Part shown: one piece after another, positions 13,441 to 58,156 of the stretch | Layout of the letters: each line of letters begins with the position of its first letter | How positions within the stretch are numbered: the stretch's first letter is position 1 | DNA from: Podarcis gaigeae | Lineage: Eukaryota | NCBI GenBank assembly: GCA_964106915.2 | Contig: OZ066918.1 | Length of the DNA stretch: 64,000 bases | Strand: one strand, 5' to 3' | Notes under the pieces: model-generated | What the model was told of the DNA's origin: nothing | Databases searched by the model: none | What the model saw: only the letters and a program-made list of their open reading frames with translations | Program-made: the position numbers and the translations under genes

Positions 13441-13441
<1 letters not shown>

Positions 13442-13473: not shown

Positions 13474-13475
<2 letters not shown>

Positions 13476-14695: not shown

Positions 14696-14701
14696 ACACC
14701 T

Positions 14702-16008: not shown

Positions 16009-16116
16009 ATCGAGATCTCCATCTATGAGGATCGTTGCAGCAGTTCCAGCTCTGGCAGCTCAAGCAGCAGCAACAGCAGTGCTGGTGGCGGGGGTGGGGG
16101 AGCCGGGGGCCGGTGA
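16009..16116 (+). CDS. GOLGA7B: GOLGA7B exon 5 to first stop (IEISIYEDRCSSSSSGSSSSNSSAGGGGGGAGGR*)
   Basis: cccacag acceptor; Ser/Gly-rich tail typical of GOLGA7B; TGA at 16114-16116; total CDS 166 aa. Confidence 0.95.
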   Translation: MEISIYEDRCSSSSSGSSSSSNSSAGGGGGGAGGR

Positions 16117-16206
16117 CTGGCACAGAGTCCCGGCAGGGATTTGTACTGCCGGGACGACGGTGTCTCCGAGATCCGCAGACTGCGCTACCAGAGCACCCGC
16201 TTCTGA
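16117..16206 (+). CDS. GOLGA7B: Putative stop-codon-readthrough extension of GOLGA7B (X-LAQSPGRDLYCRDDGVSEIRRLRYQSTRF*)
   Basis: In frame after TGA-CTG, 29 sense codons to a second TGA at 16204-16206; ends in a class I PDZ motif; 8 CpGs in 87 nt versus 2 in the next ~94 nt. Confidence 0.6.
   Translation: MAQSPGRDLYCRDDGVSEIRRLRYQSTRF
16119..16164 (+). promoter_or_regulatory. RNA stem-loop 3' of the GOLGA7B stop codon (candidate readthrough stimulator)
   Basis: GTCCCGGCAG (16127-16136) is the exact reverse complement of CTGCCGGGAC (16146-16155) with a 9-nt loop; extendable by GGCAC (16119-16123) pairing with GTGTC (16160-16164). Confidence 0.65.
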
Positions 16207-27411: not shown

Positions 27412-27417
27412 TTTATT
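27412..27417 (-). terminator. Candidate polyA signal for the CRTAC1 three-EGF isoform
   Basis: AATAAA on the minus strand at the end of the (AAT)n tract, about 230 nt past the stop at 27644. Confidence 0.5.
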
Positions 27418-27643: not shown

Positions 27644-27774
27644 TCAGTTCTTCACACAGCGCCGCCTGTCTGCCCCCAAGAAGAAGCCTTGCTGGCAGTG
27701 GCAATGGAAAGAGCCAGGCTCATTGTGGCAGATGTGATCACACGGGGCCGGTCTTTCTCTGCACTCATTTACAT
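27644..27774 (-). CDS. CRTAC1: CRTAC1 alternative terminal exon, calcium-binding EGF domain 3 (DVNECRERPAPCDHICHNEPGSFHCHCQQGFFLGADRRRCVKN*)
   Basis: tccttctgtttttcag acceptor, phase 1; D-x-N-E-C and C-x-N-x-x-G-S-F-x-C signatures, six cysteines, TGA at 27646-27644; absent from the ORF track. Confidence 0.8.
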
Positions 27775-28133
27775 CTGAAAAACAGAAGGAAGAGACATAT
27801 TTCACCCAGCGGGAGGAGCAGATGCCAGCGGGGATTTCAACGGAGTGCCCAACAGCAAGGATAACCAGCTCCTTGGAGCCTACTCCTTGCAGCTGAAAAA
27901 ATGAAAAAATGATGCCTGCAGCAAACTGTTACCCTACTCCCTACTGCAAGAGGTAGTCGCTGACCCAGCTCTTCCACAGTTTTGTGCCATGGAACACCTC
28001 AGAGAGACCTAGAAGAGGACATGCTATGGCAATGCCTGCCACCATGGAAGGTGTGGTGGTCTGGCTCATTGCTTGCAGACTTTTTGGAGCAACAGCTACT
28101 GGCCTGCTCAGCAGATACTGGCTACTATTTTTT

Positions 28134-28135
<2 letters not shown>

Positions 28136-28182
<47 letters not shown>

Positions 28183-28197
28183 TCACTCACTCACACA
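28136..28197. repeat. (AC)n / (ACTC)n microsatellite
   Basis: Direct reading. Confidence 0.95.
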
Positions 28198-28291
28198 CCC
28201 CAAAATGTATATACTAGTTGTTTGTACTAAAAGCTTGCAGTGGTTTACAAAAAGGATTAAAATATTAATAAAAGACAGTTTAAAAACTTAC

Positions 28292-28417
28292 CCAGGCACT
28301 TGTTGGCATCTTGGGGATCAGTCTTGAAGCCGGGGTGGCACTGGCAGGAATGCCCACCCTGTGTGTTGACACAGACGTGGCTGCAGTTATGCAGACCATA
28401 GGTGCACTCATTTATGT
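28292..28417 (-). CDS. CRTAC1: CRTAC1 alternative exon, calcium-binding EGF domain 2 (DINECTYGLHNCSHVCVNTQGGHSCQCHPGFKTDPQDANKCL)
   Basis: ctgcccag acceptor, G|gtaagt donor, 126 nt, phase 1-1 (compatible with exon 14); six-cysteine cbEGF pattern. Confidence 0.82.
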
Positions 28418-29562: not shown

Positions 29563-29769
29563 CAGTGGTACCTCGGGTTACAGACACTTCAGGTTACAGA
29601 CTGCTAACCCAGAAATAGCACCTCGTGTTAAGAACTTTGCTTCAGGATGGGAACATAAATCGTGTTCTGGCGGTGCAGTGGCTGAAGAAGGCCCCATTAG
29701 CTAAAGTGGTGCTTCAGGTTAAGAATGCATCTCCAGAACGAATTAAGTTCTTAACTCGAGGTACCACTG
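29563..29769. mobile_element. Tc1/mariner (Tigger/pogo-like) MITE
   Basis: TIR CAGTGGTACCTCG / CGAGGTACCACTG flanked by a TA TSD. Confidence 0.88.
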
Positions 29770-33895: not shown

Positions 33896-34014
33896 TTAAA
33901 GTGCATAGGAGTGAAAGCAGAGTCCGAGGCAAAGTGGAAGCAGAGGGGCAGAGGGCAAGATGGGGCCCAGCCAGCTCCCTGAGGAAGGGTATCCACCAAA
34001 AAAGGCCACTTGAG
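33896..34014 (-). CDS. CRTAC1: CRTAC1 B-type (LOTUS) terminal exon (AQVAFFGGYPSSGSWLGPILPSAPLLPLCLGLCFHSYAL*)
   Basis: ctgtgcag acceptor after a pyrimidine tract, phase 1; resembles the recalled CRTAC1-B tail AQVAFLGGYSS...LGLCLQLYAL. Confidence 0.88.
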
Positions 34015-34635: not shown

Positions 34636-34779
34636 CAACGCAAGCTGTGCCGTCCTCGTTGGGCTCAAAGCCGCGATTGCAGCGCTTGTTGCTGCGGCAA
34701 CGGTACCCGCCATATGTGTTGATGCAGATGGGCCTGCCCCTGGGGCAGACAAAGGGGAATTCTGCACACTCATCCATAT
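34636..34779 (-). CDS. CRTAC1: CRTAC1 exon 14, calcium-binding EGF domain 1 (DMDECAEFPFVCPRGRPICINTYGGYRCRSNKRCNRGFEPNEDGTACV)
   Basis: ttctcag / gtgagt, 144 nt, phase 1-1. Confidence 0.95.
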
Positions 34780-35047: not shown

Positions 35048-35090
35048 CAACACATCGCCCATTCTCATGCTGAGAGAAGCCTTGGCCACA
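35048..35090 (-). CDS. CRTAC1: CRTAC1 exon 13 (CGQGFSQHENGRCV)
   Basis: ctgcag / gtgagt, 43 nt; matches recalled human CGQGFSQQENGHCM. Confidence 0.93.
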
Positions 35091-37544
35091 CTGCAGGAGA
35101 AAGAGAGAAATGTGTTATCTGTGTGCTGCCTAATTGCCTCCCAGCCTCGGCTCCCTCTCTGCCTTGCCTCCATCAAGATGCTATTTCCATGCTATTTCCA
35201 GGAAATCGGGGGGTTTGTGTGGCTGCCTCAGACCATATAGCAGCTAATGTGGTAGCTCTCAGCCCTTGAGTCTCTTTTTGTTATCATCTCAGTTCTGAAA
35301 AGGTATATGGAAAGTTTCTGCTCAACACTTTAAAACAGCAGGTGAACCTAGGTTGGGCTTTCACAGCTGGCAGGAGATGAGATGAGTTCCTCAATCATTC
35401 CCCAAGGTCTCAATTGCCTTGTGCGCCTATTTCTTCACCTCTGAGTGTTTTGCAATGGGCAAATTCACTGTCCTGCAATCTGGGCAGCAAAGAAGGAAAG
35501 GGTCGGTTACATGCTGTTCTAGACTTCTTAAGATCTGTGACGAAGGGGTTGACATATTTTGCTGCGACTCCACATCTCTCCAGTATTTATAACAGTTCTG
35601 TGTAGCAGTGGGAGTAATGCTACAGCCAGACTACCCAAACCCAGACTCTGCGATTCACATATGGAACCCGTTGGGACACGTGGCCTTCCCACTTCACTTC
35701 AATGGAAGGGGAAATCCATATGTACAAATGGGTTCACATTCAGAGCCGCTTCCTCTAAAAAAGAAAATGGGGCATCCTTTGCAAGTGATTTCCTATAATG
35801 CACAGTAAAGGACCCACGTCAGATTTCTGGATAGTGGGCTTCTTTGGGAGGATGGGCAGGAGCGAGTCTTGATCATTTCCATTGTGTAGATGCAGGTCCT
35901 CTTAACATCTAGTAAATCTGCCACTGAACATGGAGAATTCACAACTCAGCATCCACCAAACAGAGAGGTTATCTAACCTACATAGCTTGCCCTCATCTGG
36001 CTGCCCATCCACCAGAACATGACTGGTCCAACTATCTGATGATGGTGTACAAATTCATATCCAGACTTCTTCAAAGCAAGTGAATATTCAGGTTCTCTCT
36101 GCAAATTTCAGCAGCCTTTATTGGTCAACTTGACAGATGGCAGCAGAGGAAGCAGAGCAGGGGAAAGGACAAAGTCTGCTCTGGACCACTTCATCAGGAA
36201 TAACTCCAGCAATTCCTGCTGCAGCCAGAGCTGAAGAAGTCGTGTTGCAGAACTTTTTGGCACGGACTGTCTAGCCATTCTGTGCCTCCTTCCGCTGCAA
36301 CTCTAGTGTTGAAATTCACTGAGCTGACGGAAGCACATTTTGTAGAAACGTCATTTCAGTTATTATCTGTCTAGCACACCAAGGCCCCTTCGGCTGGTTT
36401 ATAGCCTCCCTGATCACTTGAACTGTTGCTGCCACAAATCAGGGAGCTCCAAAACAGACCACTCAAAGGGAACAGACTCAAATAACTGATGTTATTAGTG
36501 GCATTTGTATGCCACCGCATAACACAGGAGTAGGGAATTAGGCCAGCTGATCAGCCTGAAGGAGTCCTCTAATCAAAGGTCTGGTTGGTCCAAGTCCAGT
36601 TTATATATTTCTGTTTAAATGATAGCAATTTTCAATTTGCATCTATATATATAACCTGACATTTGCAAAGGTTATGCCAACTTGTGTCCTCTTTTTTGGG
36701 GGGGGGGGTATGTGAAAGTGGACACCCTCCTGGGAAGGGCAAGTAACCACCAAGTTTGTCCATTAAAAGAAAATGACATTTGAAAAAGAGAGAAAACCTT
36801 GCCCAATAGCAGCATGTGAGATTGTCCTTTTCTTTCAGTCCCCAAATATAACTTTTTCTGCAAATCTAGTGCCCCCTCCAACTACTTGGAAGTCACTGTC
36901 TTAATTTTGGGTGGCCCCATTTTGCTTGGCAGGCACTCAACCACCACAGTTCACTCTTAAGAAGGGAGAAGAGGCCCCTACAAAAATATTGCAGTGCATC
37001 TTCTTTCAGCATGCTATAAGTCACAAGCAGCTGAAGCAAGTCACTCTCTCCCATTTTCTGTTGTTTTTTTTATATGACACTCTGCGAACCGCAAATCTTA
37101 GAGACCAGTGAACACACTTAGCCTTCACTTTCTTTTAAGAGACAGGGAATTGCCCTTTTTTGATATTTTATTTTTAGATTTATTTATTTATTTGCACTTC
37201 TGCGAAGCTCAGGATTCCCCTTTGCCTGCTGAGACACCCTCAGTGGCTCTTTTGATGTCCATTTCTTTCAACAAGGGGGCACTGAATTTGTTGCTGGAGG
37301 GAGTCCCTATTACGAGGATTCTTGACATGCCTTATTGCGGGAAACAAAGCTTAGGTTTGCAATTTGCCTTTCTAAGGGGACAGAAATAATACCTCTGTCA
37401 GCACAGAGCCTCCAACAGGATCTTGCATGGCCCTTTTTCTCAGTGAGATGAGAAAACGGAAAAATGTTCCAAAGAGGAAAGGGTGAAATTGAGGAGGTCC
37501 CCATTCTAAGTAAGATGCACATGGCTGGCAAAGGCAGGGCTCAC

Positions 37545-37693
37545 CTCCAGAGGCAGAATGGTAAGGGGTGATCCCGGAGTGTCCTGGGGATAGGGGATCT
37601 CCAGCACCGAATTGATCTCGCTGCTTGCTATCGACCGGCTGATCACCCGGCCATCTGGCCAAGTCACCTCCAGGCTGCTAGGCTCATCCTGTC
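37545..37693 (-). CDS. CRTAC1: CRTAC1 exon 12 (QDEPSSLEVTWPDG...ILPLE; UnbV/ASPIC region)
   Basis: ctgtag / gtgagc, 149 nt. Confidence 0.93.
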
Positions 37694-37736
37694 CTACAGG
37701 GAAGAAAAGCAAGGAAGGGTTGAGCCCGGGAGAGAT

Positions 37737-37764
37737 AAACAAACAAACAAACAAACAAACAAAC
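37737..37764. repeat. (AAAC)n microsatellite
   Basis: Direct reading. Confidence 0.9.
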
Positions 37765-38241
37765 CTGCAGCCCACCCAGGGATCTGAATTGCTCTGTAGA
37801 ACCATCTTCCTCTCATGCGGTGGTCTGTGCTTTCCTTTCCCTCTTCCCCCTTTCAACCATTTCTTCCTGCAGAGATGAAAGAACTTGGGATGTGATGAGG
37901 GTCATGTCCTTCCATCAAGCACTCTGAGCCAACACTAGCATGGCTCTTGGGCACAAGGCCAGCTGTGAGCAGGGATGTGGGGCATTGTGGGGCACGAGCC
38001 CTCTGACTTCCCGTGCCACTTGGCTTCTCAACTCACAGCGTGGTCTAACCCGGCCAGGCCCCACTAAGCTGGGCCACCTCGGGGCTGTGGAAGAGTAATG
38101 AGGTGTGGAGACATGCCGTCCCTTCTGCAGGAACAGCTGGAGGGGGCAGGCAGGGGCCTCGCTGCAACGCACGTCCGCTCTGCTTTTTAGGACGGCAAGA
38201 TCCTGCCACTTGCTTTTTAAATGAGGACAGGAAGCAGACTT

Positions 38242-38402
38242 NNNNNNNNNNNNNNNNNNNNNNNNNNNNNNNNNNNNNNNNNNNNNNNNNNNNNNNNNNN
38301 NNNNNNNNNNNNNNNNNNNNNNNNNNNNNNNNNNNNNNNNNNNNNNNNNNNNNNNNNNNNNNNNNNNNNNNNNNNNNNNNNNNNNNNNNNNNNNNNNNNN
38401 NN
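38242..38402. other. Assembly gap (161 N) in CRTAC1 intron 11
   Basis: Run of N; exon phases either side are continuous, so no constitutive exon is missing. Confidence 0.98.
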
Positions 38403-38621
38403 CCCGCTTTATCACTAGCCGAAGGAGTCTCAAAGCGGCTAACATTCTCCTTTCCCTTCCTCCCCCACAACAAACACTCTGTAAGGTGAGTGGGGCTGAG
38501 AGACATCAAAGAATTGTGACTAGCCCAGGGTCACCCAGCAGCTGCATGTGGAGGAGCAGAGACGCAAACCCGGTTTACCAGATTATGAGTCTACTGCTTT
38601 TGACCACTACACCACACTGGC
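38403..38621 (-). mobile_element. tRNA-derived SINE (MIR/L2-tail type)
   Basis: Minus strand starts AGCCAGTGTGGTGTAGTGGTCAAAAGCAGTAGACTC (A-box) and has a CORE-like gctgggtgaccctgggctagtcac; the tail runs into the gap. Confidence 0.7.
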
Positions 38622-38949
38622 TGCACACTGGGGATAGGTAGGTTTCACCAAATCTACACTGTTTTTCAGCAACATTAGCAGACTCAAAGATGGGGCATTA
38701 TGCCTAGAGGCAGAGGTTTCAGACTGAAGGGAGTTTGTTAGAGGAAGGACAGAAACAAATGTCTGCAAAGCTTGCAATGTGTTCTGGTAGCGCAGGGCAG
38801 GTATTATCAGGGATGAGCGGCAGACGGGATCCAGGAAGCTCAGAAGCATCATTGGGATGGCCGTGAAGATGGACAGGACGAGAAGAGATCTGGGAGGGCA
38901 CACACCCCGCTCAGGCTCCAAGCCCTGCTTCCAACTCCTCCGCACTCAC

Positions 38950-39118
38950 CCAAGCCGAAATGGGCAACGGGCTCCATCTCGCACAAGTACCCAGACCCTC
39001 CGTCAATGATACGCAGATGGGCACCACTCTGACGTGTGAAGAGAACCACCTTGGCACCACGAGCAAATGCCCCGAAGCGCGTACGTGGGATCACTCGCAG
39101 CCAGTTGTTGCCAGCGCC
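38950..39118 (-). CDS. CRTAC1: CRTAC1 exon 11 (GAGNNWLRVIPRTRFGAFARGAKV...GGSGYLCEMEPVAHFGL)
   Basis: ccacag / gtgagt, 169 nt; ASPIC/UnbV motif. Confidence 0.96.
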
Positions 39119-39247
39119 CTGTGGAGATGGACAGACAGACTAAGCCAAGGAATGGGCAGGCACGGAAGGGAGGAAGGAGTGGACCATGCTTGCTCAGATG
39201 TGGGCTGGGATCTGAGCGCATTGTGAGGAGCACCTCTCAGCACCCAC

Positions 39248-39348
39248 CTCGTTGACCTTGAAGACTGAAAGCGGCTGGGCCATGGACTCTCCATGTGACA
39301 GGATCAGGTCCAGCCTTCCATCGCCATCAAAATCCACCACTGCCCCCC
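39248..39348 (-). CDS. CRTAC1: CRTAC1 exon 10 (GGAVVDFDGDGRLDLILSHGESMAQPLSVFKVNE)
   Basis: ttccag / gtgggt, 101 nt; FG-GAP calcium loop DFDGDG. Confidence 0.96.
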
Positions 39349-40127
39349 CTGGAATGACACAACGTCCATAAGCAAAGGTCTTGTTTAGTACCCATAGGAC
39401 CATATTCCCCTTCCACAAGCATGGCTGGAATAAGAACCAGTAGGAGAGTCAAGGAATACATCTCTGCCCCATGGTTCCACCCAAATTGCCTCCACTGACA
39501 CTGACCATCCATGTGTCTGTTCACCCCAGAAACTGTTTCTGTTCCTGGTGCCAAATGCTTTGTAAATGGCAACATCATTTCTGCGAATGTTACTCAAGAT
39601 TTCAGTGTCTTGGTGGTGGGTGGGAATTCCACACAGCCAACCCCTGGATCTTAATTTAATTGTCATGAAGTAAGATTCTGGCCTGGCTTGGTTTCACCCT
39701 TTAGTGGGGTAGGAGTCATCTTGCTTCTTCTTGATGGAGGCACACTTTAATTATTTTTATTTTTATGCTATGAATTCTTTCTGCTTGGTAAGTTGTTTTG
39801 TATTTTAATATTTTGAAGGTCACTTAGAGATGTTTCACAAAAAGTGCTGAAATTTATTATTATTATTATAAATAATAATAATACTTTGTTTTCATGCTTT
39901 GCTCTAAGAGTTGGCCAAGCATGTGTGACCAGATTACAGACCTTTTGGCTTGGGGCAAGAGGATATTTTGTCCCTCTCCCCTCCACCCACCAAATCATAA
40001 AGTTCTGATCTTTTCATGGGATACCGAAGCCCCCAGCTCTGCCAATCCTCTCCCGTCTCTTCTGAGTGCCTGCTGTCTCTGCAGTGAGAAGATGCTCCCT
40101 GCATCCATCCCCATGCTGATAATCCCT

Positions 40128-40224
40128 GCTGTACGCCAGCTCCCTTGGCCAATAAAGCGAGATGAGCGCCGCAACCCCAGAGTCGTCCATGACTGGACCT
40201 AATGGTCAGGAGTCCCTTTACCTT
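40128..40224 (+). mobile_element. Sauria SINE 3' fragment
   Basis: Reverse complement of about 10465-10560; ends CCCTTTACCTT. Confidence 0.85.
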
Positions 40225-40378
40225 ATTTATATGCAGGGTGGAATATAAATACGAATTTTGGAACAAGCCCCCACCCCAGGCCGTCTGGTAGCTAGAGTAA
40301 CCCCTCTGTTCACTAAGCCCACTCCTGCTAAGCGAAGCCACCTGATCATGTTCCACAAGAGACATTGGGGAGACCCAC

Positions 40379-40461
40379 CTGTGCCACGCCCCTCGGGTTC
40401 CACGGCATCACCAGGATTCAGTTCCTCGATGGCCGGGTCAGCATGCTCTCGGCGGACCACC
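40379..40461 (-). CDS. CRTAC1: CRTAC1 exon 9 (VVRREHADPAIEELNPGDAVEPEGRGT)
   Basis: ccacag / gtgggt, 83 nt. Confidence 0.95.
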
Positions 40462-41133
40462 CTGTGGCAGAAGGGGAGTGTGCCAGTGCAGAGAAGATGC
40501 TCTTCCCTCCCACAAAAGGGCAGTCAAGCCTACCACCACTACTCCTGAGTGGGCACCACCCTTTGCCCACACACTCTCTTGCCAAATCCTTATCTTCCCA
40601 GAAAGGGGCCCTGCCCACTTGCATAGCAACAGGTTTCCGCACGGACTGCCCAGATTTGCCACATGCTGCTGCTATCACTTTATTAGCCTGAGAAATGTAA
40701 GCGGCTCTGTTTAACGAGCCATTGATTGCCTACAATTAATGGGAACCGTGCATAAGTGCTAATTAGTGAAAGCCAGAACCTCCAGGGATGTGGTCTAGGC
40801 GGAACAGAACTGCTGTATTAGTAGCGGTGTAGGAAGGAGCTCAGTCACAGCTCTGTCAGCTGACCGGAGGGAGGGCAGAGCAGGATAGAACACACCCTCC
40901 TGTGGGTTACGGCAGTGGGGGAACTAAAAGGCGCTAGATTCTGGGTGCAGAATCCAGCCCTCCCCCCCTCCCTCTCCCCATGTTCTCAAGTTCTGCATGC
41001 AGGACTTCCTAAGGACACAGCGGGTTCACCACAGACTCTGGTGCGGGGGTCGCCCTCCCTGCAGTGCCCGGGAGCCTGGGAAGATGGGGAGCCCACTGCC
41101 CCAGCCTCTGGTGGCCACGTGGCTCTCACCCAC

Positions 41134-41270
41134 CGGAAGAGGCGGTTGGCGGATGAGCCGCGATAGGCGATGTTGTTGAAGAAGACCTCCAACTCCTGGT
41201 CATTGTCAAAGTCAGCAGCGATGACGGTGCGGACGGGTGATGGCATGGACAGTTTGGGCGTGGCAATGTC
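41134..41270 (-). CDS. CRTAC1: CRTAC1 exon 8 (DIATPKLSMPSPVRTVIAADFDNDQELEVFFNNIAYRGSSANRLFR)
   Basis: ccccag / gtgggt, 137 nt. Confidence 0.96.
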
Positions 41271-42185
41271 CTGGGGGAAGGACGGGGGTTAGTGGGGCAG
41301 GGCTTGGGCTGGAGCAGGGCCAAGAGGAAGCTCAGGTCTAAGGAGGGGAGGGGTCAGGAGGCATCGTGGCTGGCAGGGCCAGAATACAGGGGAGCTGTGG
41401 AGTGGAGAGGGGAGCAGAGCTGGAGGAGCTGGGCACAGCGCAGAGACTGCAGTCTCCTGCAAGGCAGCAGCTGGGGAAGGAACCAAGGAGAGGAAAAGGC
41501 TGCCTGGTCGACACGGCGGGAAGAAGCAACGGTGCGGAGCCGCGGGTCTAAAAGACGAGGCAACCCTTTAAAAACAAGGAACATCTGGCGGCCCAGCTGG
41601 GGGCAAAGGCAGCAGTCTCCTTGGTGATCTGCAGTTCTGCTCTGGCTTTCCAGAATGCGGGGGGGGGGGGGGGGGAATAAAGCACAGAGGGAGCGCCGAG
41701 TGGTGGTGGCAGTGGGGATCCCTGCCTGCTCCAGCCCAGCCTTCGCACATTGAGCAGGAAGGGTCTGAAGGGGAAGGGTTCGCATATTCAGCTGAGCGCA
41801 CTTGGAAGTGTGCCCGCAACTGGGAACTCTCAGTTGCACAACGTTCCTGATCCTAAGCGCATCCAGCTGAACACACAAAGACTCCTCCTCCAGAACCTCA
41901 GGAGTCAATGCATGAAAGCTGGCAAGTGTTTGTGGAGCGGGGGGCGGGGGGGGGGAGCTAGGAGTGTGGCTGGCTCACATGGCCTTGCACAAAAACACCC
42001 CCCCCACACACTGTATCTTTCCCCAACACCAAGCGTTCACTGAATGCCTGAGTAAGGCTTCTCTGTTCCACTCTTTCTTAGGGACTTCCAAGGACTGGAC
42101 TCTCCCTCCATGATCCCACCACTTCCCTGCTCACAGCCCAGGCCTTTCACCATTTTGGGACCTCCCTCTTCCACGTGACACTTAC

Positions 42186-42325
42186 TCGGAAGCGCCCACC
42201 TGCGCTCATCTGCAGGTAGAGCCGGTGAGGTCCGTTCCAGTTACCGTAGATCAGGTCCACTTTGCCGTCGCGGTTGAAGTCGGCCAGCGCCACGCCGCGC
42301 CCGTGCTGGTAGGGGTCATCCAGGC
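42186..42325 (-). CDS. CRTAC1: CRTAC1 exon 7 (LDDPYQHGRGVALADFNRDGKVDLIYGNWNGPHRLYLQMSAGGRFR)
   Basis: cccacag / gtaagt, 140 nt; not in the ORF track. Confidence 0.95.
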
Positions 42326-42935
42326 CTGTGGGAGGCGGCAGAGGAAGTCAGCAGGGCTGAGAGTCCCCTGAAGGCAAAAGGACGCTGTGGACTCAACTGA
42401 GCCTTCCCTTCTGCTCCTGCCTTAGAGGTTGAGCAGCTCAGAGGTTATGAGGCAGCACTTGCCCCAAGTGGCTCAAATTCAGCCTGTCAAGGATGGGACA
42501 GTGGGGGGCAGGCTACAGGGGGCAGAGGGTGGCTGGTGGAGCAGACAGTCCACAGGCAGGGGCCAGAGGACCTCTGCAGATTCCCATGGACACCTAACCC
42601 ATCTTTCCCGCCTCTCCCCGCAGGTCCCCCTACTCCTATTCTCTTGCTGACAAGGAAGGAGTGTTTCTAAAGGGAATAGGTGTCGTCAGCAGCACCACGG
42701 TGATGGATGCCACCCTGACACCTCGTTAAACTCCAGTGATCAGCCAGACACTCAATTACTGGTGGTGGCTGAGCCCTCAGGCACTCGTCATCACACACAC
42801 ACCGGCAGGCAAGGAGAGGGGCAGGGAAATGGCAGGACCCCACCAGGATGAAAGAGGGCCAAGCAGCTGCTCTGGTGAGTTCTGCCCCACAGCTAATGGC
42901 TTCCGATGACACCCTCACCCTTGCCACTCACTCAC

Positions 42936-43070
42936 CAGCAGAGGGCGCTACGTCTATGAAGGTACCATCACCCTGGTTCTTGAAGAGGAAGTTGGCTCCG
43001 TTCTCGTTGTCGCAAAATATGTCGGAGGCTGCTTCACTCAGGATGGGCCCCACAGCCAAGCCCCGGCCCC
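42936..43070 (-). CDS. CRTAC1: CRTAC1 exon 6 (GRGLAVGPILSEAASDIFCDNENGANFLFKNQGDGTFIDVAPSA)
   Basis: ttcccag / gtgagt, 135 nt. Confidence 0.95.
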
Positions 43071-43974
43071 CTGGGAAGAGGAACAGCAAAAACCAGAAGT
43101 TAGCACAATATGGGCATTACAGGTGGGACAGGTTCCCGTCGAGATCCACTTCTTGGTTCGCTCTCCTGCTCCCTTACACCTCTTTTCACAATTATTGAAC
43201 TTCACTTGAATGTTGGGGTTCAGTCTTCACCAGCAATGATCACCACAATTATTACAAAAATAGTCAGTGGCAGTTCACTGCCATAGAGACTGAGAGCAAG
43301 ACAAAAATGGCATATAGCTCAGCAACACTTCCCAGTTGCCAGGATTGAAGGTGCCTGCCTTCCACCCCTCCTAAGGCTTCTTCTCTCCAGGATGTTTCCT
43401 AGGCAGCCTCAAATTGTGTCTGTGCACCTCTGGTCTCTGTTCTGCCCTCCTTATTATCCTGCACATTCTTGGGGAGTGGGGGGGGATGGGAGCTTGTCGC
43501 AGCTGGAGAGGGAAACTCCCAGGATGCTTCAGTAGACTCTTGACCACCCTCCTCTGCTTCAGTCTTAGTCTGAATTGCTGCCTGTCACAGGTTCCTCCTG
43601 CTCACTAAACCCTGTTATCCCTTTAGTATCTAGCATCTCCTCCCAATTTCGCCCCTCTGATCTCACCTCAGTGTCCCACCACCAATGTCCTGGCTCTGAT
43701 CCTTCCCTCTCTGGGATTTCCAATGGGGGGGGGAGAGGTTTCCCAGCTGGTGTCTTCCACCACTCTTCACCACCTGACACCTCCCTATATTGGAGGCTTG
43801 GGCTTAGTTGGCCAAACTTGGCTTTTGACTGCTATTTTAGTTTTCCTAATATCCGGGATCTGTGTGTTTTTCCAACAATAGAACATCTGAGGCATCGTGG
43901 GAAAACAAAATGGTGGACGTATGTGGCTGTTGCTAGAGGAGCTCTGTCACTCTTTGTACTGCCCAGCCACGTAT

Positions 43975-44286
43975 AGGAACATAGGAAGCTACCTTATACT
44001 GGGCCAAACCACAGGCCTATCTAGCTCAGTATTTAGAGTCATAGAATCATAGAATGGTATAGTTCGAAGGGACCACAAGGGTCATCTAGTTAAACCCCCT
44101 GCAAAGCAGGAATCCTTTGCCCAACACTGGGTTCAAACCTACAACTCTGAGATTAAGAGTCTCATGCTCTACCAACTGAGTTCAGACAGGAAACTCTTTT
44201 CCCTTCCTAAAGATGCTGGGGGCTGAATCTAGAACTTTCTGCATGCAAAAAGCAGAAGCTCTACCATTGAGCTACAGCCTTTCCCC
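43975..44286 (-). mobile_element. Squam3-like SINE interrupted by a tRNA-Lys/CR1-tail SINE (about 44035-44180)
   Basis: Host tail at 43975-44031 and head at 44181-44286; the insert reads (minus) CTCAGTTGGTAGAGCATGAGACTCTTAATCTCAG...TTGGGCA plus a CR1 3' end with (ATTCTATG)n. Confidence 0.75.
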
Positions 44287-44331
44287 TTATGCTGGGCTAG
44301 CTCTTGGGAGAACAATACTTTGCCCTCATAC

Positions 44332-44488
44332 CTGTGAATTTGTTGACTCCGGCATCTGCCGCCACATCATTCAGTGCCACAATGCCATTCTCCAGGTCGC
44401 TGGCAGCTGTGTCCATCTCGATGAGGGCATGGGGCCCAACTCTCATACTGGCATAGTTAGCTATGTAGATGGAGTAGCGGCCAGAGCC
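44332..44488 (-). CDS. CRTAC1: CRTAC1 exon 5 (GSGRYSIYIANYASMRVGPHALIEMD...AGVNKFT)
   Basis: ctacag / gtatga, 157 nt. Confidence 0.96.
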
Positions 44489-45129
44489 CTGTAGGAAGGG
44501 ATGTGGGGGCAGGTGAGAGGCCTGAGTCTTCACTGGACTGGACCCCTCTCTTCCCAGCACGAGGACGGACGCAGAGGGTGCCATGCCCAGGGCCCTGACA
44601 GGGATGAGTCTATAAAGTAAAGCCAGGCACAGGCACCTGAGCAGAAGCGGCGTAGTCTAGCCATGGCCTCCCAAACAGGGGGTGCCATCCTTCATGCTCC
44701 CCTGTTTTGCCTCAGACATCTCTTCCAACCACTCCCTGTCCGTCCCCCCATTGTTTCCCTCATGGCACCCTGATTTAGCAATAATCGTTTGAAAATAAGC
44801 CACGCAAGGCAGAGGGAGAAGAAAGCACAGGTGACAGGGGCATAAATCACCTAGACAGGCTGTGTTTATCAGCAGCACGGCACCCGCCTGGCATGGCAGT
44901 CCCTGATGGGAGCCCTGACAGCTGTGAGGGAGGGGGAGGAGGAGGCAGAGCTCGGCCTTGAGAAGTTGGGTGGAGAGCAGGCCCCTCTAAGCCCATGTCC
45001 TCCCCTCCTCCATACAACTACACTGGTGCATCTTCGGCTCCCAGCTGGCCCCACCCCCCGTGGGCCTGACCCACAACCCTGAAATCACAGCCTCAAGCCA
45101 ACCCACCCCAAGCTGTTCCACACACTCAC

Positions 45130-45260
45130 CGTCCTGTCCACGCAGGCCACGGAGCGCCCAGCAAACCAGCTTGCCACACCCCGGTTCACCTCATCACTCA
45201 AGATGTCCTCCCAGCGCCCGTTCCGAAACTTGAACAGTTTGTCTGTATAGGTAGCTACAC
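45130..45260 (-). CDS. CRTAC1: CRTAC1 exon 4 (VATYTDKLFKFRNGRWEDILSDEVNRGVASWFAGRSVACVDRT)
   Basis: ttcccag / gtgagt, 131 nt. Confidence 0.96.
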
Positions 45261-48158
45261 CTGGGAAGGAGAGATAAGGTATCAAGATGTTTCAGGGTCT
45301 CCTGGCCAGGTGCTGAATCAGCTCTCCCTTTCTCTCCTTCTCTCCCAAGACAGGAAATCAGTCTGGGTTGTGCATGACTTTCTCTGGAGCCCTAACCGTG
45401 TAATTATGCTACGGGCCCTCCCTAATTGATGCTCCAGACGATCTGTTTGTTCAGCATTCATCCTGATTTGCTTGCACAAATCTTGCCTGGTTAGACTATG
45501 CATTCGTTCTGATTTGTTTATGGGGAGGTTATATGACCACGGGTCCCTTCAGACTGGTGCTTTTTGTGGCTATATTCTGCAAAATGTCGCTGATGCAATA
45601 ATTGTGCATTAGTGGAGGGTTTACACCACCCTCAAATCTACTACTTTATGAGTTGTTCTGTGATGCCCATGGAGCACATCATCACCATCGGAAGAAGAAC
45701 TTATGCTTAGTGCAACAAAAAGTGGATAATCACCCACTGACCCCGAACTTCTGTGGTATGAAAAGTTGCAGGATTTCGGCACTGAGCTACACAACATGCA
45801 CCTATTGCAAACAAAGCAGTATGTTTGTCCTGAAACCTTTTCAGGAATGAACAGGCTTGAAAGTGGGATCCTATAAAACTGTCCTGACACCATCATGAGC
45901 ACAACTAATGATGAATATTCAAGAGAAGAGACATCTGGAAGGACCCAATGAACATGCATCCTGATTTGCTTCTGGGGTGTTTACATGTCTTCCCATTAAT
46001 CATTTCTTCATGCCACACTCTTTAGTGCATTTTGCTGTCACTTTCCAAACCACAAAAAGTCCCCTGCAAGTGGGTTTGTTGAGCTAGGGCAGCAGAGTGC
46101 TTTAATCCATTTGAATTGCACAAATCTAAATTGAATTGCTCTTGCAAAATACTGACAGTCTAGAGGCACCCTAAGCCTCCAGCAACTGCAGGTTTGGAGT
46201 GCAGAGACTTGCTGCAAGCCTGGCTCCGAACTGCAGCGTTACACTCTGCAGGTGTGACACCCATGGATGCAGATCTTTGCAAGTGATGAATGCACCCCCG
46301 AATCCTGATCTAGATTGAACCCTTGCGACTGTCCCATTTGGATCACATTCCCTCTGTCCATAGATGCCTGTTCCTGATCATCCGCCTTTTGGGGCTCCCC
46401 CTACTCTGCCGACCTCGCCCAATGCCTAATTGCTCTCTGGTACTGCAGGGTTGTGATCAGGACCGTGCGACAATGAATGCAGCAACCCCAGCAAAGCTTA
46501 AGGGCTGGTAAGGGAGGCCCAAAAGAATAAACTCATTAAGGTAAAATGTGCCAGAGCAGCGCGGAGCCATGTTCATCATAAAGGGAAAGGGGAAAATCAA
46601 TGGCAGGCACTGGCTGGGCCCTGATGCCAGGAGTAATGTGAATGGCTGATTTAGGGAACCTTTGGCAGCTGCAAAGCAGTAATTAGGTGTGTCAGGAAGA
46701 CTGATAAGTGGAGCCAAGAGCAGGTCGATGCTGCAGGTGAGGGGCCCAGCCCTTCTCAGGAAGGATGCGATGGGGAAGTGGTCGCTTTTCTAGGCAGATT
46801 TCCGGAGACCCCAAGCAGTGCTTTGGACCAAAGGAAAAGCATTGGTGGTGGGAGGGCATTTATCTTTTCCAGATATATTCCGACTAGAAATGACGTATAC
46901 TACATATCCCATCATCCCTAGCTAACAGGACCAGTGGTCAGGGATGATGGGAATTGTAGTCCAAAAACAGCTGGAGGGCCAAGTTTGGCCACCATTGCCC
47001 TAGAACAAGTCACAGGCTGCCAGATCTGATCAAGCAACATATTTCTAGGATTCGAACATGTGAAGCCATCCAAGCAAAGCGTCTGTTGACTTGGGTGCAA
47101 TTCCTAACTAGCCCCTAGGAAGGGGCTTGGCCTTGGGACAGAACCAACAGTGTGTATTTTGAGGTTAGTCACACCTAGGCATTGCAAAAGCATGCCGAAC
47201 ATCACCTCTGCTCCTAAAGCAGCAAAGGGTCTCTTAGCAGCAGTCTAGGAATTAGGGAACCACCTTTCCAGAAAAGAAAATATTAGCCCCTCTACCATTA
47301 GAGGTAGAGCATTGCCAGTGGGGGTGGGAAAGAATATGCTTTGGGGTTTCACTACTTTCTCCCTTGCGTAACCCCAATGCTGTCTCAAAGGATGTCTCCT
47401 TGCCCAGCGAGATACTTGCCTGTCCCTCAGAGATCCCAGGGCTCCTGGAGCTGCAGTCCCTGCTGGCAACTAGAGATGTGGCAAAGCCCTGAGTCAGCAG
47501 CCAAGTCTCCTCCCCCCCCCACTCCCTCTCCCCCCCCCCCGCCGCCACCCGCTGCTGCCAGAGAATCGACAAAATCACTCAGCTGGGAAATTAACTCCAG
47601 CCTTGAAACATCCCACCCTGGTGGCCAGTGAAGGTCAGGGAACTGGAGTCAGTGGCTCGGGGCTGGCAGGTGAAGAGCCCCAAAGCCAACGGTGTGAAGG
47701 AGGGGAGCCTGCACTGCCAGGACATCAGCCAAGAAAGGAGAGTGACCACTGGCCATCACCACCACAGCCACATGCCCCTCTGTGGATCACTCCCATTCTC
47801 TTTTCATTCTCCTGTTTGCAGGATAAATGTTAATGATAGGATCGTTTGTGAAGAAAACATCATGTTTTCATCATCAGTGAGTGAATGTGGACTGATGGGT
47901 GGGTACCACGTGTTTAATGGGTGTTATGGGATGGGCACGTCACAACAGAGGTGAATGGAGATGGCTCATGGCAGACAATGGGTAGGTGCAAGAACCTGGT
48001 AAAAGATGTAAGACTGATCAAGGTGATTCTTGAGAGGCAGGTGGGTCTTGATGGATAGATATCAAGGACAAGAAAGTTCATAGGGCACAGGAGAAGCTGG
48101 ATATGCTAATTGGGTTGCCAGCAGGCAAATGTCAGGAAGGAACAGCTTTCGCACTCAC

Positions 48159-48355
48159 CGGAGAAGGCGTTATTGGTGTTGAGGAAGTAGATCTCCTCCC
48201 GCCCGTCCCCATCAATGTCGCATGCTGTCACACCAATCGCATTGCCTTGGCGATCCCGCAGTGCATAATATGGGGAGCTACGTTCATCCACTGCAAGGTT
48301 CACCAGCCGGCCCCGTATCTTGTCATACTTCAGCACCAGGTTGGGACCATTGTAC
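48159..48355 (-). CDS. CRTAC1: CRTAC1 exon 3 (YNGPNLVLKYDKIRGRLVNLAVDERSSPYYALRDRQGNAIGVTACDIDGDGREEIYFLNTNNAFS)
   Basis: cttcag / gtgagt, 197 nt. Confidence 0.97.
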
Positions 48356-51300
48356 CTGAAGGAATGGAGAGCAGGAAATGTGATGTGGGAGGTGCTTCAA
48401 GGTAGCAGTGACCCTTCCCACCAGATCTCTTCCAGAAAATCAAAGTCCACCGTTCTCATTTTGTGGGGTTACCGGGAGACGCAGCAAAGGGCACATCCCA
48501 TCATTGCTATTCCTGGGGGAAAGGGAGGGGTGTGTCACAAAGAGAATGGAGCTTGAAGCCAAACATGGAGGAGACTTCAGAATGTCTATATTTATTCCAC
48601 TTGTATTCTTCTCCTCCCTGCAGTTCAGGGCAGCAAACGAGGGGACTATCCCACAACAAAAATAACAGCAAGACCAAGGTCATAACATGGGTTTCGTGGC
48701 CGTCTCCGTTTCAGAGCACAGTATCTACTATTACTATAATCCTGCTGTAAAACCTGGCACTGTAGATGTTCCAAATCAGGTAGATAGCACTGCAAAAAGG
48801 TTTTTAAATTCTTACTTTACTGTAAATAAAAGAAAAGGGGGAAACCATCTGCACCCATGAACAATAAGAACAATCCACCAACCCAGCAAATATATATATA
48901 TGTGTGTGAATGAGCTATCATACCTAATTTAAACATATATTGCACATTCATATAATCCAGCCATATGCCCAAAAGGGTATCCAAGTGAGACAGATGATTG
49001 TTTGATACATGATGCTTTAGTTGACATTCCTGCACTGCAGGCAGTTGGACTGCATAACCCCTGGGATCCCCTCCAGCTGTACAATGCTACGGTTCTATGT
49101 TCAAATGTGCAAAGGGCAGTAAGATTTTCAGACCACCGTGCAGTAGATGGTGGGTGGGTGCAGTTATAATTTAACTGCAGGGTTAAATTATAAGGATTTG
49201 GAGGTGGGCTTCTGGCTGTAGGGCTCCCATCTCTATGGAAGAAGAGTTCCTTTTTCTAATTAATTTCACTCAAATTGAAGGACTCTGGCATCTAGAAAGG
49301 CAGTACTGGGGCTCCCAGGAAATAAAAACCAGCTGGTAAAGCAAGCTAGGGAGGTGCTTATTTGAAAGCATTGAACATCTATCAGAGATCTGATGCCCAG
49401 AAGATTCAGGTTGAAATTCCCCTTGTCAGTTTGGGGATCAACACAGCCCACTTGGAGCTTGAATGCCAAACCGGCTTACGACATTGGGTTAGCCTGGAAA
49501 CCCCTGGCAGGCAACAGCTGGCACTTCTAGTACAGGGATGGCACCTGCCCGTCTTCAGGACGGCTACGGCCCAGTGGCACCCTCCCACGCCAAACGCCCA
49601 ATCAATCAGCTTCTCAGAACCCTGATAGTCAGATCCAGCATGAGACCCGGATTCTTTTAGACATCCATCCATGCTAACATCACACAATGCGAAGTTGCAG
49701 AAACGCCTGAGCAGTTTCATCTGGCAGCTAATGATGTGTGACTCTAATGTGGTTAGCATGGAGTTTGCGAAGGCTGAAAATGCACAGTCTAGAGAGAGAA
49801 AATTAATACAGCAGAGGAGAAGGAGGTCAGGTAGGGAGGGAGAAACCTTGAGGACAATGTTACAAAGCCCTGGAGAAAATAACGCTCACTAGCACCCAAG
49901 GGGAATCAGGATTGGGGCCTGATAGTGAAGCGCAATTGATAAAAAGAGCCATAGCTGCATCGGAGGCTGAATCCTGAGCATCAGAGGTGCATCACAGGTG
50001 AACATATCAATATATTGGCCAGATTCACCTGAAAGTGCTAGCACCTGTGAGACTTGGGAGAAGAAAAAGCTGGCTTTGGGAAATCTACCACACCATCACT
50101 GAAGCCATCTCAGAAGCAATGAGTTCCTATAAATGTTCACACTGTCCATTTCTTCATTCTCAAACAGAACATGGATTCAGATGCTTCCCAATGATTTCAA
50201 CGAGTACATGATAGCCAGATGATCTGAAGCTTTTCTCATATGACTGACTACAATATTCCCCCTCCTCCCCATCTGTAATCATGAACAGGAAGGAGGCTTT
50301 CATGTGATGAATGCCGTGTGAAAGGGTTAACAGCTGCTCTGAGTTCCTCCAGAGTCTTATTTCTGTCACGTTTTGTGGTTGGCATAGCCTTTGCCTGATT
50401 GGACATGCACCCCACTGAAAAGCACAGTGCTGCCTAGGCTGTGGTGAAGGCCTTTCCGGAAAGGTGGCAGTCTGTGATCCAGAGCGCGCTAGATCTGAGC
50501 AGCTAAGAAACTTTATTGGATAAGACAGTTCCACCCCTCTCTCAGGAGCTGGACACGCATTAGGAACAAGTGCAAAAGCAAATTAGAAGTAGCTAGGCAT
50601 GAGAAAGGAACTCGGCCTGCAGATGGCTTTGCAAAGTTCTAACTCTAGTCTCTCTTGTTAAGGCAGCACAACACCACTTCTTCTCGATAAAAGCTTTCCC
50701 AAGAGAGCTGAGAAATGTATTTTGCCGCTTAACCAGGTGAACTTGCCAACTCCAGTGCGAAAGGCTTTAAGAGATCCAAGATGGCGAAGCAAGATAAATG
50801 CTCTCCCACCTTGTTCCCAAAGCCAGGCAAGTTGGAGCAGAGGGCTGGGCGCTGTTGCTACATACCATTTCATTGTTCTAGGGCCCATAAAACTCATTTG
50901 GACATCGGAAAATTAAAGGGAGTACATGAAGCTTAAAATGTAGCTTTTTGATATGTATGAACATGCTCAAAGTCTCTCGGATCTTGTAATAATCTCAGCT
51001 AAGTTACTTGTACCAGATAGGGGCCTGAATTTTGAGAGGATCTCCTTAGGACGCATGCAAGAGGAGTTGCAAAGGCGTTCTGTTGCCTTTCCCCTTCCAA
51101 TTTTTAAAAAGTTGTCTAGTGCCTCTTGCACAGATGAGTGAGCACCAGTTCCCAGCTTAGGGCTTTCTGCCTGGGCTGACTCAGCAAGCGCTATACCCTG
51201 GCCTCGGATAAACAAGTTACACAAGCAGCAGTCATTGGGTTATGAAATGTCCCGTCTCTGTTTATGGTTATGGCCTGGCACGGGAGGGAGGGAAGCAGAT

Positions 51301-51924
51301 AATTGCTTTTCCCCTCCCCATCTCCATGGGATGGTTGCAGCCAAGCTCCCTGGGAGGGTTTTAATTCCCCCCCCTTCCCATCTGGCCCACCCACTCCTCA
51401 TTCTTAGACAAGGAAAATATGGAGCACCGCCCTTGTCAAGACTACAGAACACAGATGGGATGGGTGATCCAAACAGACTCCTTAGCAATGGAGTAGGGGC
51501 ACAATCCCATTTCAGACCACAGTGAGCACTTACTCTGGGACTGGCAGCAAACCCTTGAGCTGGCACGTGTCAGTGATCAAAGAGAAGCCAACAGCAGCAA
51601 ACCTGCTTGTGCCCAAACTTGTCTTCATGTGATGCATCCAGCTCCTTAGCACACCCCCTCCCAGTGCTAACATTTCGCATCTAGGCACAACAGCAGCATC
51701 TGTGCTATTAAGACTCCAAGTATCAACAATGTGGCCATGGACCATGTGGAAGTGGTATCTGAATTGACATTGCTGAATATGGTCAGCTTGGAGGCAGACA
51801 CTCCATTGGCAGAGGAAGGAAGATACCTGCAACAGAGATTGCCAGGTCAGTCTGGTCTCACTTCAGCAAGACTCAGCCAGTCTCTGGTATGAGCACATCT
51901 TGGACAGCAAAAGCTTCTCTGGCA

Positions 51925-53308
51925 TGCTGTCCCTATTTTCAAAAAAGGGGAAAAGAGAGGACCCAAATAATTACCACCCAGTCAGTCTGACATCAATACC
52001 AGGGAAGATTCTGGAGCAGATCATTAAGCAAACATTCCTAGAAAGGAATGCTGTGATCACCAATAGTCAGCATGGACTTCTGAAAAATAAGTCATGTCAG
52101 ACTAACCTGATCTCATTTTTTGACAGAATTACAAGCCTGGTAGATGAAGGGAACGCAGTGGATGTAGCCTACCTTGATTTCAGCAAGGCATTTAACAAGG
52201 TGCCCCATGATATTCTTGTAAAGAAGCTGGTAAAATGCGGTCTTGACTATGCTACCACTCAGTGGATTTGTAATTGGCTGACTGACCGAACCCAAAGGGT
52301 GCTCATCAATGGTTCCTCTTCATCCTGGAGAAGAGTGACTATTGGGGTGCCACAGGGTTCTGTCTTGGGCCCGGTCTTATTCAACATCTTTATCAACGAC
52401 TTGGATGATGGACTCAAGGGCATCCTGATCAAATTTGCAGATGACACCAAAGGGAGGGTGGCTAACACCCCAGAGGACAGGATCACACTTCAAAACGACC
52501 TTGACAGATTAGAGAACTGGGCCAAAACAAACAAGATGAATTTTAACAGGGAGAAATGTAAAGTATTGCACTTGGGCAAAAAAAATGAGAGGCACAAATA
52601 CAAGATGGGTGACACCTGGCTTGAGAGCCAGGTGTGAAAAGGATGTAGGAGTCTTGGTTGACCACAAACTTGACATGAGCCAACAGTGTGACGCGGCAGC
52701 TAAAAAAGCCAATGCAATTCTGGGCTGCATCAATAGGAGTATAGCATCTTGATCAAGGGAAGTAATAGTGCCACTGTATTCTGCTCTGGTCAGACCTCAC
52801 ATGGAGTACTGTGTCCAGTTCTGGGCACCACAGTTCAAGAAGGACACTGACAAACTGGAACGTGTCCAGAGGAGGGCAACCAAAATGGTCCAAGGCCTGG
52901 AAACGATGCCTTATGAGGAACGGCTAAGGGAGGGGGCATGTTTAGCCTGGAGAAGAGGAGGTTAAGGGGTGATATGATAGCCATGTTCAAATATATAAAA
53001 GGATGTCACATAGAGGAGGGAGAAAGGTTGTTTTCTCCTGCTCCAGAGAAGTGGACACGGAGCAATGGTTCCAAACTACAAGAAAGAAGATTCCACCTAA
53101 ACAATAGGAAGAATTTCCTGACAGTAAGAGCTGTTCGACAGTGGAATTTGCTGCCAAGGAGTGTGGTGGAGTCTCCTTCTTTGGAGGTCTTTAAGCAGAG
53201 GCTTGACAACCATATGTCAGGAGTGCTCTGATGGTGTTTCCTGCTTGGCAGGGGGTTGGACTCGATGGCCCTTGTGGTCTCTTCCAACTATGATTCTATG
53301 ATTCTATG
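51925..53308 (+). mobile_element. 5'-truncated CR1 LINE (reverse transcriptase part of ORF2 plus 3' UTR)
   Basis: RT motifs YHPVSLTSIPGKILE, YLDFSKAF, GVPQGSVLGP, FADDTK; several frameshifts and stops; terminal (ATTCTATG)2. Confidence 0.97.
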
Positions 53309-53479
53309 CGCTGGAGGAGATACTGGGCATGTGAGGGGGTGTTTGCTATAGGATGCTTCTTGAAGTTGCACCAGCACTAATGACAAAACCAGAAGATGAA
53401 AGGGGAAATGCTACCATCTGACGGGTGGAGAAATAATGGAATTCCTCCCCAGAGAACACTTAATGCATTGTTGAAGCTC

Positions 53480-54050
53480 TTCTACATAGATCAGACCTGG
53501 ATTTGGTGTTATTTGATTTCTATTAGCAAGCTGGAGAACCTACTTATTAATCTTGCAGGTGACACAAAACTAGCAAGTTCTGTGGACATTTTAGGGGATA
53601 GGAGTCAAATTAAAAATGAATTTGGCAAATCAAAATCCTAGCCAGGGGAAAAGAGGAAAATAGGAAGCATTTTGAAGGAAAAAACCCCAACTGAACTTCA
53701 GAAAAACTTGGCTAGGTTGGCAGTAATACTGCCGAGAAGTGTCTGGAGTTATAGCGGATCATAAACTAAATGTGAGCTAGGAGTATGGCAAAAGCAGACA
53801 AAATATTGTTTTGAGGCTGCCTTCTCAGAAGCAGTGTGTCTAAGAAGCAGAACCTACTTGCTCTGTTCAGCACTGCTCAAGCCACCGCTGAAGAAGTAGC
53901 GTCTCCTTTAATAAGAACATTGACAAATTGGTGACAGTTCAGGACAGAATGATGGAGATGCCAGGTTTGGAATGCAAGTCCATGAAGAAAGGTCAGTGGG
54001 ACGATGGGACAAAAAGGATGGATGGATTCAGGTTAAACACAAATATGGGT
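53480..54050 (+). mobile_element. Ancient degraded CR1 fragment
   Basis: LLINLAGDTKLASSVDILGDRSQIKNEF resembles CR1 IKFADDTKLGG..DR..IQNDL; downstream is collinear with CR1 but heavily decayed. Confidence 0.65.
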
Positions 54051-57000: not shown

Positions 57001-57253
57001 GGTCATGACTCCCGGGTGGCCAGCTAGCAAGGGGGGCTCTAAGGCAGCTGCAGGCAGAAACAGTTTGTCAGAGAAACGACTTGGGAAGACAGCTGCTAAA
57101 GGAAAGCTTTACTGCAGATGCACGTTCAGGCCTCCATCCGTACCTTTGCACTGTTATTACTTCAGGTTTATTTCAGGTGCTACAGCCTGACCCCATCATG
57201 TTGAACATCAGAATGAAAGAGCAGAAATATGCACCTTTTTCATCTCTCTAGAA

Positions 57254-57668
57254 CCCGCCCTCCAGCTCATGGACCAAACTTGGCCCATGCCAGGGGTTCA
57301 GATTTTGCCTGTGAGGCTGTTTCCGCCAAACCACACACACTTGCCCCCCACTCGATGTCAGTGTGACATCAATGTGGGGCCGGTATAGATACAGTTGCCA
57401 ATGCACAAATCGGGAGTCTTAAAAGTGGGTCCACAGTTGTGCGTTGAGAAGGGAAAGCAGGCTTCAGCCAAAGCGAAAGCGAAAGCTGGCTAGAACCAAA
57501 ATCTGCTGGATGATTGCATAAAGCAGGACTTGGCTCTACCACCCATCAGATGATGCCTGCTGCACTGCATGTGAATGGTGCTTTGAAGTCCCGACTTTAG
57601 GACTTCAAAGCTCCTAATCACCTGGTGTCAAATTTGGCCAAAGGAGCCAAAAAGATTTCTCACCCCTG
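57254..57668. mobile_element. Degraded hAT-like element
   Basis: CTCTAGAA direct repeat at 57246-57253 and 57669-57676; right end TCTCACCCCTG resembles a hAT TIR; left end is eroded. Confidence 0.45.
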
Positions 57669-57953
57669 CTCTAGAACAAAGGGGAGGTTGAGGACACCAA
57701 ATGACACCAAGCCCACACTTGCCTCCAGCCTAGAATCTCCACAATAACCCAGAAAGACAGGCCATCTCCCCACCCCACTGCCTGACACATGTCAAAGATG
57801 CATGTATACCTAGCCTAGACTTGTGAATGTGTATGTGAACCTGCCTAGACCTGCATCATGTCAAAGCTCACCCCAACCATGGCACCCTCTTTCCTGGCAG
57901 CCATCTCCATTCTCATACCTCTTACAGCACCCAGTATTATCCATGGTACCCAC

Positions 57954-58156
57954 CCAGCCACGATGATCTCAAAGTCTCCATCCTGGTCCACATCAGTCAC
58001 GGCCACACCATAATTGAGCTGGGTCGGATTGCTGTCATAGTCAGGCGGGAGGATCTGATCCGTGATGGCTGTGAACATGGGCTCGCTTCGCTGAGATCCT
58101 TCACCAGGCCAAGCCAGGACCAAGCTCCACAACAATAACAGCCGCCACTTTGACAT
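57954..58156 (-). CDS. CRTAC1: CRTAC1 exon 2: signal peptide and start of FG-GAP region (MSKWRLLLLWSLVLAWPGEGSQRSEPMFTAITDQILPPDYDSNPTQLNYGVAVTDVDQDGDFEIIVAG)
   Basis: cttgtag acceptor directly before ATG, gtgggt donor, 203 nt; matches recalled CRTAC1. From this ATG the B isoform is 635 aa and the three-EGF isoform 681 aa. Confidence 0.97.

Follow-up and report, generated by a model that had tools for sequence, protein, structure and literature searches.

A predicted secreted three-EGF form of CRTAC1 in Podarcis gaigeae and its likely loss in mammals

CRTAC1 is studied as a marker of osteoarthritis and lung, and, under the name LOTUS, as an antagonist of the Nogo receptor. The available parts of the literature describe the protein with one EGF motif (PMC8536980, PMC4945026, PMC10477339) and with tails of the A or B type only, and the available text of PMC11352776 holds no passage on EGFs. 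In a stretch of 64,000 nucleotides from Podarcis gaigeae (contig OZ066918.1; the whole stretch is called the window), a first-pass annotation made from the letters alone had placed two intact calcium-binding EGF (cbEGF) exons about 5.5 kb beyond the B-type terminal exon, with canonical splice sites, twelve cysteines and a phase-1 fit to exon 14. The locus raises the question of whether these exons form a second end of CRTAC1 and, if so, how old this end is and what became of it in mammals.

The gene and its two terminal routes

On the minus strand, tblastn of database CRTAC1 proteins, refined to AG/GT ends, gave 13 coding exons between the ATG at 58156 and exon 14 (34779-34636). Those upstream of exon 14 encode a signal peptide, an FG-GAP propeller and an UnbV/ASPIC domain, with exon 13 (35090-35048) forming a half-EGF with two cysteines. 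Exon 14 carries EGF1, the cbEGF common to every form, and the alternative ends part at its phase-1 donor. The features are:

35048..58156, minus strand: CRTAC1 coding exons from the ATG to exon 13 (tblastn; splice sites and frame; several junctions in RNA)
34636..34779, minus strand: exon 14, EGF1 (Pfam EGF_CA, 49.5 bits; RNA junctions; splice sites)
33896..34014, minus strand: coding part of the B/LOTUS-type terminal exon (matches to database B tails; contig ends at 34014; hydropathy)
28292..28417, minus strand: exon for EGF2, a six-cysteine cbEGF; 126 bp, phase 1-1 (Pfam; splice sites; RNA junctions)
27644..27774, minus strand: coding part of the EGF3 terminal exon, cbEGF with six cysteines, then TGA (Pfam; splice sites; RNA junctions; single genomic place)
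27412..27417, minus strand: AATAAA that likely directs polyadenylation of the three-EGF mRNA (sequence; stranded read depth)

Several findings identify the gene as the CRTAC1 orthologue: exon-wise tblastn matches; FG-GAP repeats, UnbV/ASPIC and a cbEGF matched by Pfam on the near-identical database protein P0459; a hydrophobic N-terminus that fits a signal peptide; and an adjoining GOLGA7-family gene, recognised by Erf4-family exons on the plus strand. Counted from the ATG at 58156, the model reproduces the lengths first proposed, 681 aa for the three-EGF form and 635 aa for the B form; some database CRTAC1 models are approximately 13 aa longer (694 aa), and an AG immediately before this ATG suggests an additional upstream exon. 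The sole CRTAC1 match in the PDB, 9ETN, spans the core and EGF1 only, and a structure prediction of P0459 from a 22-sequence alignment had a mean pLDDT of 63, at about 34-60 across the EGFs, too low to inform on their fold. Very high-copy interspersed repeats occupy parts of the introns (29560-30270, 38400-38620 and 40130-40220), where they dominate read depth.

Splice sites, frame and domain content all bear out the two exons as first described. The EGF2 exon lies between a pyrimidine-rich AG acceptor and a GTAAGT donor, the EGF3 exon follows an AG acceptor, and the frame left by the phase-1 end of exon 14 is carried on through both. Each begins with the D-x-[DN]-E-C motif and has six cysteines, and each scores above the Pfam EGF_CA (PF07645) cut-off of 27 (EGF2, 38.6 bits, E 1.2e-9; EGF3, 40.3 bits, E 3.8e-10), such that both are predicted calcium-binding domains by consensus and cut-off; EGF2 departs from the consensus in having His at the aromatic position preceding Cys4. 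The distance and the ending were also as had been claimed, with the B stop ending at 33896, 5.48 kb before EGF2, and EGF3 closing on a TGA followed by an AATAAA from 27417. EGF2 also contains an N-C-S/T glycosylation sequon (28415-28370), as do 44 of 62 two-EGF tails in the database.

Transcription was assessed in a close relative about 95% alike to the window, using eight runs of unspecified tissue from four studies; two of these were stranded RNA-seq runs, and about 12% of each was read. None of the runs listed was catalogued as RNA, although several were presumed to be, and the evidence is what their reads and contigs themselves display. Both junctions predicted by the first-pass annotation were present in this RNA. 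In the two stranded runs, 34636>28417 was crossed by 167 reads (70 starts) and 83 reads (42 starts), and 28292>27774 by 175 and 94 reads, compared with 99-308 and 64-173 reads over the five constitutive junctions listed. Hence the EGF junctions are about as frequent as constitutive ones in the RNA sampled from the relative. Both were found in all eight runs across the four studies, with only two and five reads in the single-cell run X21. One sample yielded three contig sets in which both junctions had depths of 41-77, and a single contig of 2504 nt (X7) spans exon 14, EGF2 and EGF3. The stranded depth was 90-170 over EGF3 versus about 1-4 over the B exon, UTR included, and in X23 and X24 it fell from this level to about zero beyond the bin holding the AATAAA at 27417. 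In window 27400-26500, contigs from X1 and X3 continue beyond that signal to at least 26500, and the 3' UTR may thus extend further. Between the window and its relative, four coding differences were listed, two silent and two changing an amino acid.

The B route was visible in a different way. Its exon encodes a 38 aa tail with a hydrophobic end, and AATAAA occurs at 33887 and 33394. Contigs of the B exon reached a depth of 6-8, against 41-77 for the EGF junctions, and stopped precisely at 34014, the acceptor, with an unmatched remainder of 30 letters in two cases, all in one sample. No junction from exon 14 to B was among the joints listed in tables crowded by repeat-derived joints, with 68 and 31 others beyond those listed. 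Minor spliced use of B is read from the contigs ending at the acceptor, which it fits. Hence one donor serves two terminal routes, the EGF route being seen by junction reads and the B route by contig ends, which supports the alternative last-exon choice originally proposed. In the RNA sampled from the relative, the three-EGF form is the main form and B is minor.

That choice had also been read as a switch between a membrane-associated and a secreted protein. One part of this proposal stands, in that the three-EGF tail has no anchor: its best 17-residue Kyte-Doolittle mean is 0.04, versus 1.72 for the B tail. The other part, secretion itself, is a prediction from this missing hydrophobic stretch. 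The available passages of PMC4945026 and PMC10477339 give the B tail of CRTAC1 as a presumptive transmembrane segment; in the window it consists of small residues and then a hydrophobic C-terminus with nothing beyond, for which a GPI-anchor signal would be as plausible as a transmembrane helix.

Age and origin of the EGF block

The tail is not confined to reptiles. It was found in lizards, birds, turtles, frogs and gar, the last in P0124, alongside which a B-tail model exists too. Among the 101 records with EGF1 on which the tail counts are based, 34 had both extra EGFs, three had one, 40 had a B tail and 24 had other ends. Of 62 two-EGF tails, 54 fit a strict 12-cysteine pattern with calcium ligands, while the eight misfits comprised six with an insert between the EGFs, one with a piece of B tail in front and one with longer spacing. 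Given its presence in gar and frogs, the form must be older and wider than reptiles, and the view of it as a sauropsid feature has to be abandoned; these orthologous tails date it back to the bony vertebrate ancestor, if not further.

The tail was absent from the retrieved snake, gecko, crocodilian, salamander, caecilian, lungfish and shark records; these include snakes (P0003, P0004, P0006, P0455, P0462, P0463, P0465-P0467), geckos (P0008, P0009, P0457) and an alligator (P0094). No teleost CRTAC1 was recognised among the matches listed in three homologue lists. Repeated independent losses or patchy annotation are both possible causes of the absences in snakes, geckos, crocodilians and the other groups.

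These comparisons bear directly on two other accounts of the exons. They might have come from another gene, or be chance or decayed sequence. This has virtually no probability left, as junction reads show exon 14 spliced directly to the EGF exons; moreover, EGF3 has a single exact place in the genome, where 32 other EGF hits are only 38-54% identical, and the neighbouring GOLGA7B lies on the opposite strand. Nothing was found in support of this account, nor of a reptile-specific gain, for instance by tandem duplication of exon 14, which we regard as equally close to dismissed. The latter is refuted by the orthologous tails of frogs and gar, and EGF2 and EGF3 have just 11 and 16 identities to EGF1, from which they differ in Cys4-Cys5 spacing. 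Instead, we are confident, if short of certain, that EGF2 and EGF3 are a terminal part of CRTAC1, that exon 14 is joined either to B (635 aa, predicted membrane-attached) or to EGF2-EGF3 (681 aa, predicted secreted), and that the latter was probably the ancestral secreted isoform of bony vertebrates, which mammals have likely lost.

The likeness to fibulins that the first-pass annotation had noticed extends beyond the two added domains. The half-EGF of exon 13 and EGF1-3 (35090-35048 with 34779-27644) align, in the same order, with part of the EGF array of fibulin-2. With the Anolis protein as query, fibulin-2 records took the top ten places (345-359) among 130 EGF-rich proteins (median 274), the 130 having been preselected by similarity and nine of the ten records coming from birds; fibulin-family proteins led with gar and frog queries as well. 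Nevertheless, the protein ends after EGF3 and matched no fibulin C-terminal Pfam family, such that, by domain content, its tail is like a segment of a fibulin rod but the protein is not a fibulin. The cbEGF motif occurred in only one of 46 unnamed homologues of the core, others carrying Reeler, Sushi, ShK or TSP1 domains. This rarity and the fibulin collinearity would fit acquisition of the EGF block in vertebrates. Three of the database proteins (P0178, P0181 and P0188) have the CRTAC1 core fused to Reeler, Sushi, ShK, TSP1 or rhodanese, and not to EGF.

Mammalian tails and the neighbouring gene

Downstream of CRTAC1, on the opposite strand and tail-to-tail with it, lies the GOLGA7-family gene:

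3977-16117, plus strand: GOLGA7-family gene (GOLGA7B by position), exons near 3977, 9522, 10090, 13250 and 16009 (upstream exons match Pfam Erf4/GOLGA7; exon chain)
16009..16117, plus strand: likely last coding exon of GOLGA7B (exon chain; antisense alignment to the mammalian CRTAC1-A tail)

We take this neighbour to be the B paralogue by position and from PMC10477339, in the available parts of which human CRTAC1 overlaps GOLGA7B. The antisense frame of the last exon (16130-15990, minus strand) aligned with the A tails of all six mammalian records tested, with scores of 113-132 against shuffle maxima of 60-86. In the window, the only non-mammalian genome in this comparison, that frame is not an open A-type tail exon: it is interrupted by a TGA at 16062-16060, and before 16130 there is CG in place of AG, with a weak in-phase AG 15 nt upstream. 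Because the frame matches the A tails, but has a stop and no matching AG here, the A exon can be read as a mammalian overprint; from these alignments, the mammalian CRTAC1-A tail appears to have been overprinted on the antisense strand of GOLGA7B. Marsupial records with an A tail may have been projected, with no RNA behind them.

Neither EGF2 nor EGF3 occurred in any of 91 mammalian protein records (84 from the best 120 of 246 and the best 120 of 199 hits, and seven more, with ten marsupial and two platypus entries among them); these are gene models, not genomes. Hence the suggestion that mammals lost the form agrees with all 91 records, while loss from the genome is a step further that we infer from such models; in this sense loss of the three-EGF tail in mammals is likely.

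It has to be weighed against the alternative that the isoform is real and mammals retain its exons, unannotated or rarely used. The evidence consists of protein records only, and records from snakes, geckos, a crocodilian and lungfish lack the tail too, which could reflect annotation gaps; that the tail is missing from several non-mammalian records as well weakens the argument from absence in models. Yet no record among placentals, ten marsupial and two platypus entries contains it, though many carry rare alternative tails, and 3' RACE of mouse brain and cartilage gave exon 15B only, according to the available text of PMC4945026, such that retention seems improbable. A more serious rival concerns not the history of the added EGFs but their role: they could be a spacer of little consequence, with only loss of the anchor mattering, hence their skipping, decay and replacement. 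EGF2 is indeed skipped in several models from skink, bird (ostrich), bowfin, turtle (sea turtle) and frog (P0007, P0036, P0158, P0408, P0412, P0431), the bowfin model carrying EGF3 only; it looks degenerate in those of sturgeon and paddlefish (P0143, P0146, P0161); and the secreted mammalian form has a low-complexity tail instead of EGFs, as the available parts of PMC10477339 describe it. Against this, identity with gar reaches 20 of 41 residues in EGF2 and 24 of 42 in EGF3, with scores of 128 and 158 that exceed those of the best non-CRTAC1 EGFs (111 and 115), such that, on these alignments, EGF2-3 are more conserved to gar than expected from the cysteine scaffold alone. Hence we regard the spacer as a minority reading, to be taken seriously but unlikely, and prefer one in which EGF2 and EGF3 have a role of their own.

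A proposed history and its relation to known proteins

Fibrillins and fibulins contain tandem cbEGF pairs that act as calcium-stiffened rods binding matrix partners. Because tandem pairs behave in this way there, EGF2-3 would likely form a fibulin-like rod, stiffened by calcium, that tethers the propeller core to matrix partners. The cell would choose which terminal acceptor, and with it which poly(A) site, is used; the three-EGF form, without a hydrophobic tail, would likely be released from the cell, and the B form would likely be a neural surface protein of the LOTUS type, as in mouse. On balance, and by a slender preference, we favour a fuller history, in which bony vertebrates started out with the three-EGF protein as their secreted CRTAC1, its half-EGF and three EGFs having been taken whole from a gene like fibulin-1 or fibulin-2; the mammalian ancestor would have lost EGF2-3 and kept the anchored B form; and some therians would have regained a secreted form through splicing to antisense sequence of the last coding exon of GOLGA7B. 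The tail of human plasma and cartilage CRTAC1-A would then be a de novo overprint replacing an ancient folded module.

The isoform is not new in itself, as it is already in public annotation from gar to birds, which lowers the novelty of the exons in just the way the first-pass annotation had foreseen: it is a standard RefSeq isoform, e.g. the 681-aa Zootoca vivipara model. Hence the gain lies in interpretation. In the literature searched, no description of three-EGF CRTAC1 was found, though primary papers may mention extra EGFs, nor one of a history of loss and replacement, with EGF2-3 loss and antisense overprinting. If the main non-mammalian product is indeed a secreted three-EGF protein, work on birds, reptiles, frogs and some fish uses a different C-terminus from that of human. 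If the history is also true, then mouse (B only, by RACE), human (A and B) and the states outside mammals would mark stages in a single process of loss and replacement, a clean case, open to test, in which antisense overprinting came after the loss of exons.

Among known proteins, the closest are automated models that differ in no structural respect from the window form. Zootoca vivipara RefSeq CRTAC1 isoform X2 (XP_034988635.1, P0459) has 681 aa and is identical at 674 of 681 positions, while the same three-cbEGF tail ends Anolis sagrei isoform X1 (XP_060624189.2; 620 identical positions) and Lepisosteus oculatus isoform X1 (XP_015202013.2; 484 identical positions). The cbEGF array of fibulin-2 and fibulin-1 aligns with the half-EGF and three EGFs, and the match extends to the long Cys4-Cys5 loop of EGF1, whereas the window protein has neither a fibulin C-terminal nor an anaphylatoxin domain, and its core is an FG-GAP propeller with UnbV/ASPIC. 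Mammalian CRTAC1-B/LOTUS shares the core and EGF1, and its B exon is also present in the window, but in the available descriptions (PMC4945026, PMC10477339) it has a single EGF, followed by a tail presumed to be transmembrane, and its counterpart is minor in RNA from the window's relative. Human CRTAC1-A is similar in manner of production, arising, as far as the available text of PMC4945026 describes it, by use of an alternative last exon without a membrane tail, as the three-EGF form does. It differs in how that end is built, being secreted with a 56-residue, low-complexity, O-glycosylated tail and no extra EGFs (PMC10477339, available parts).
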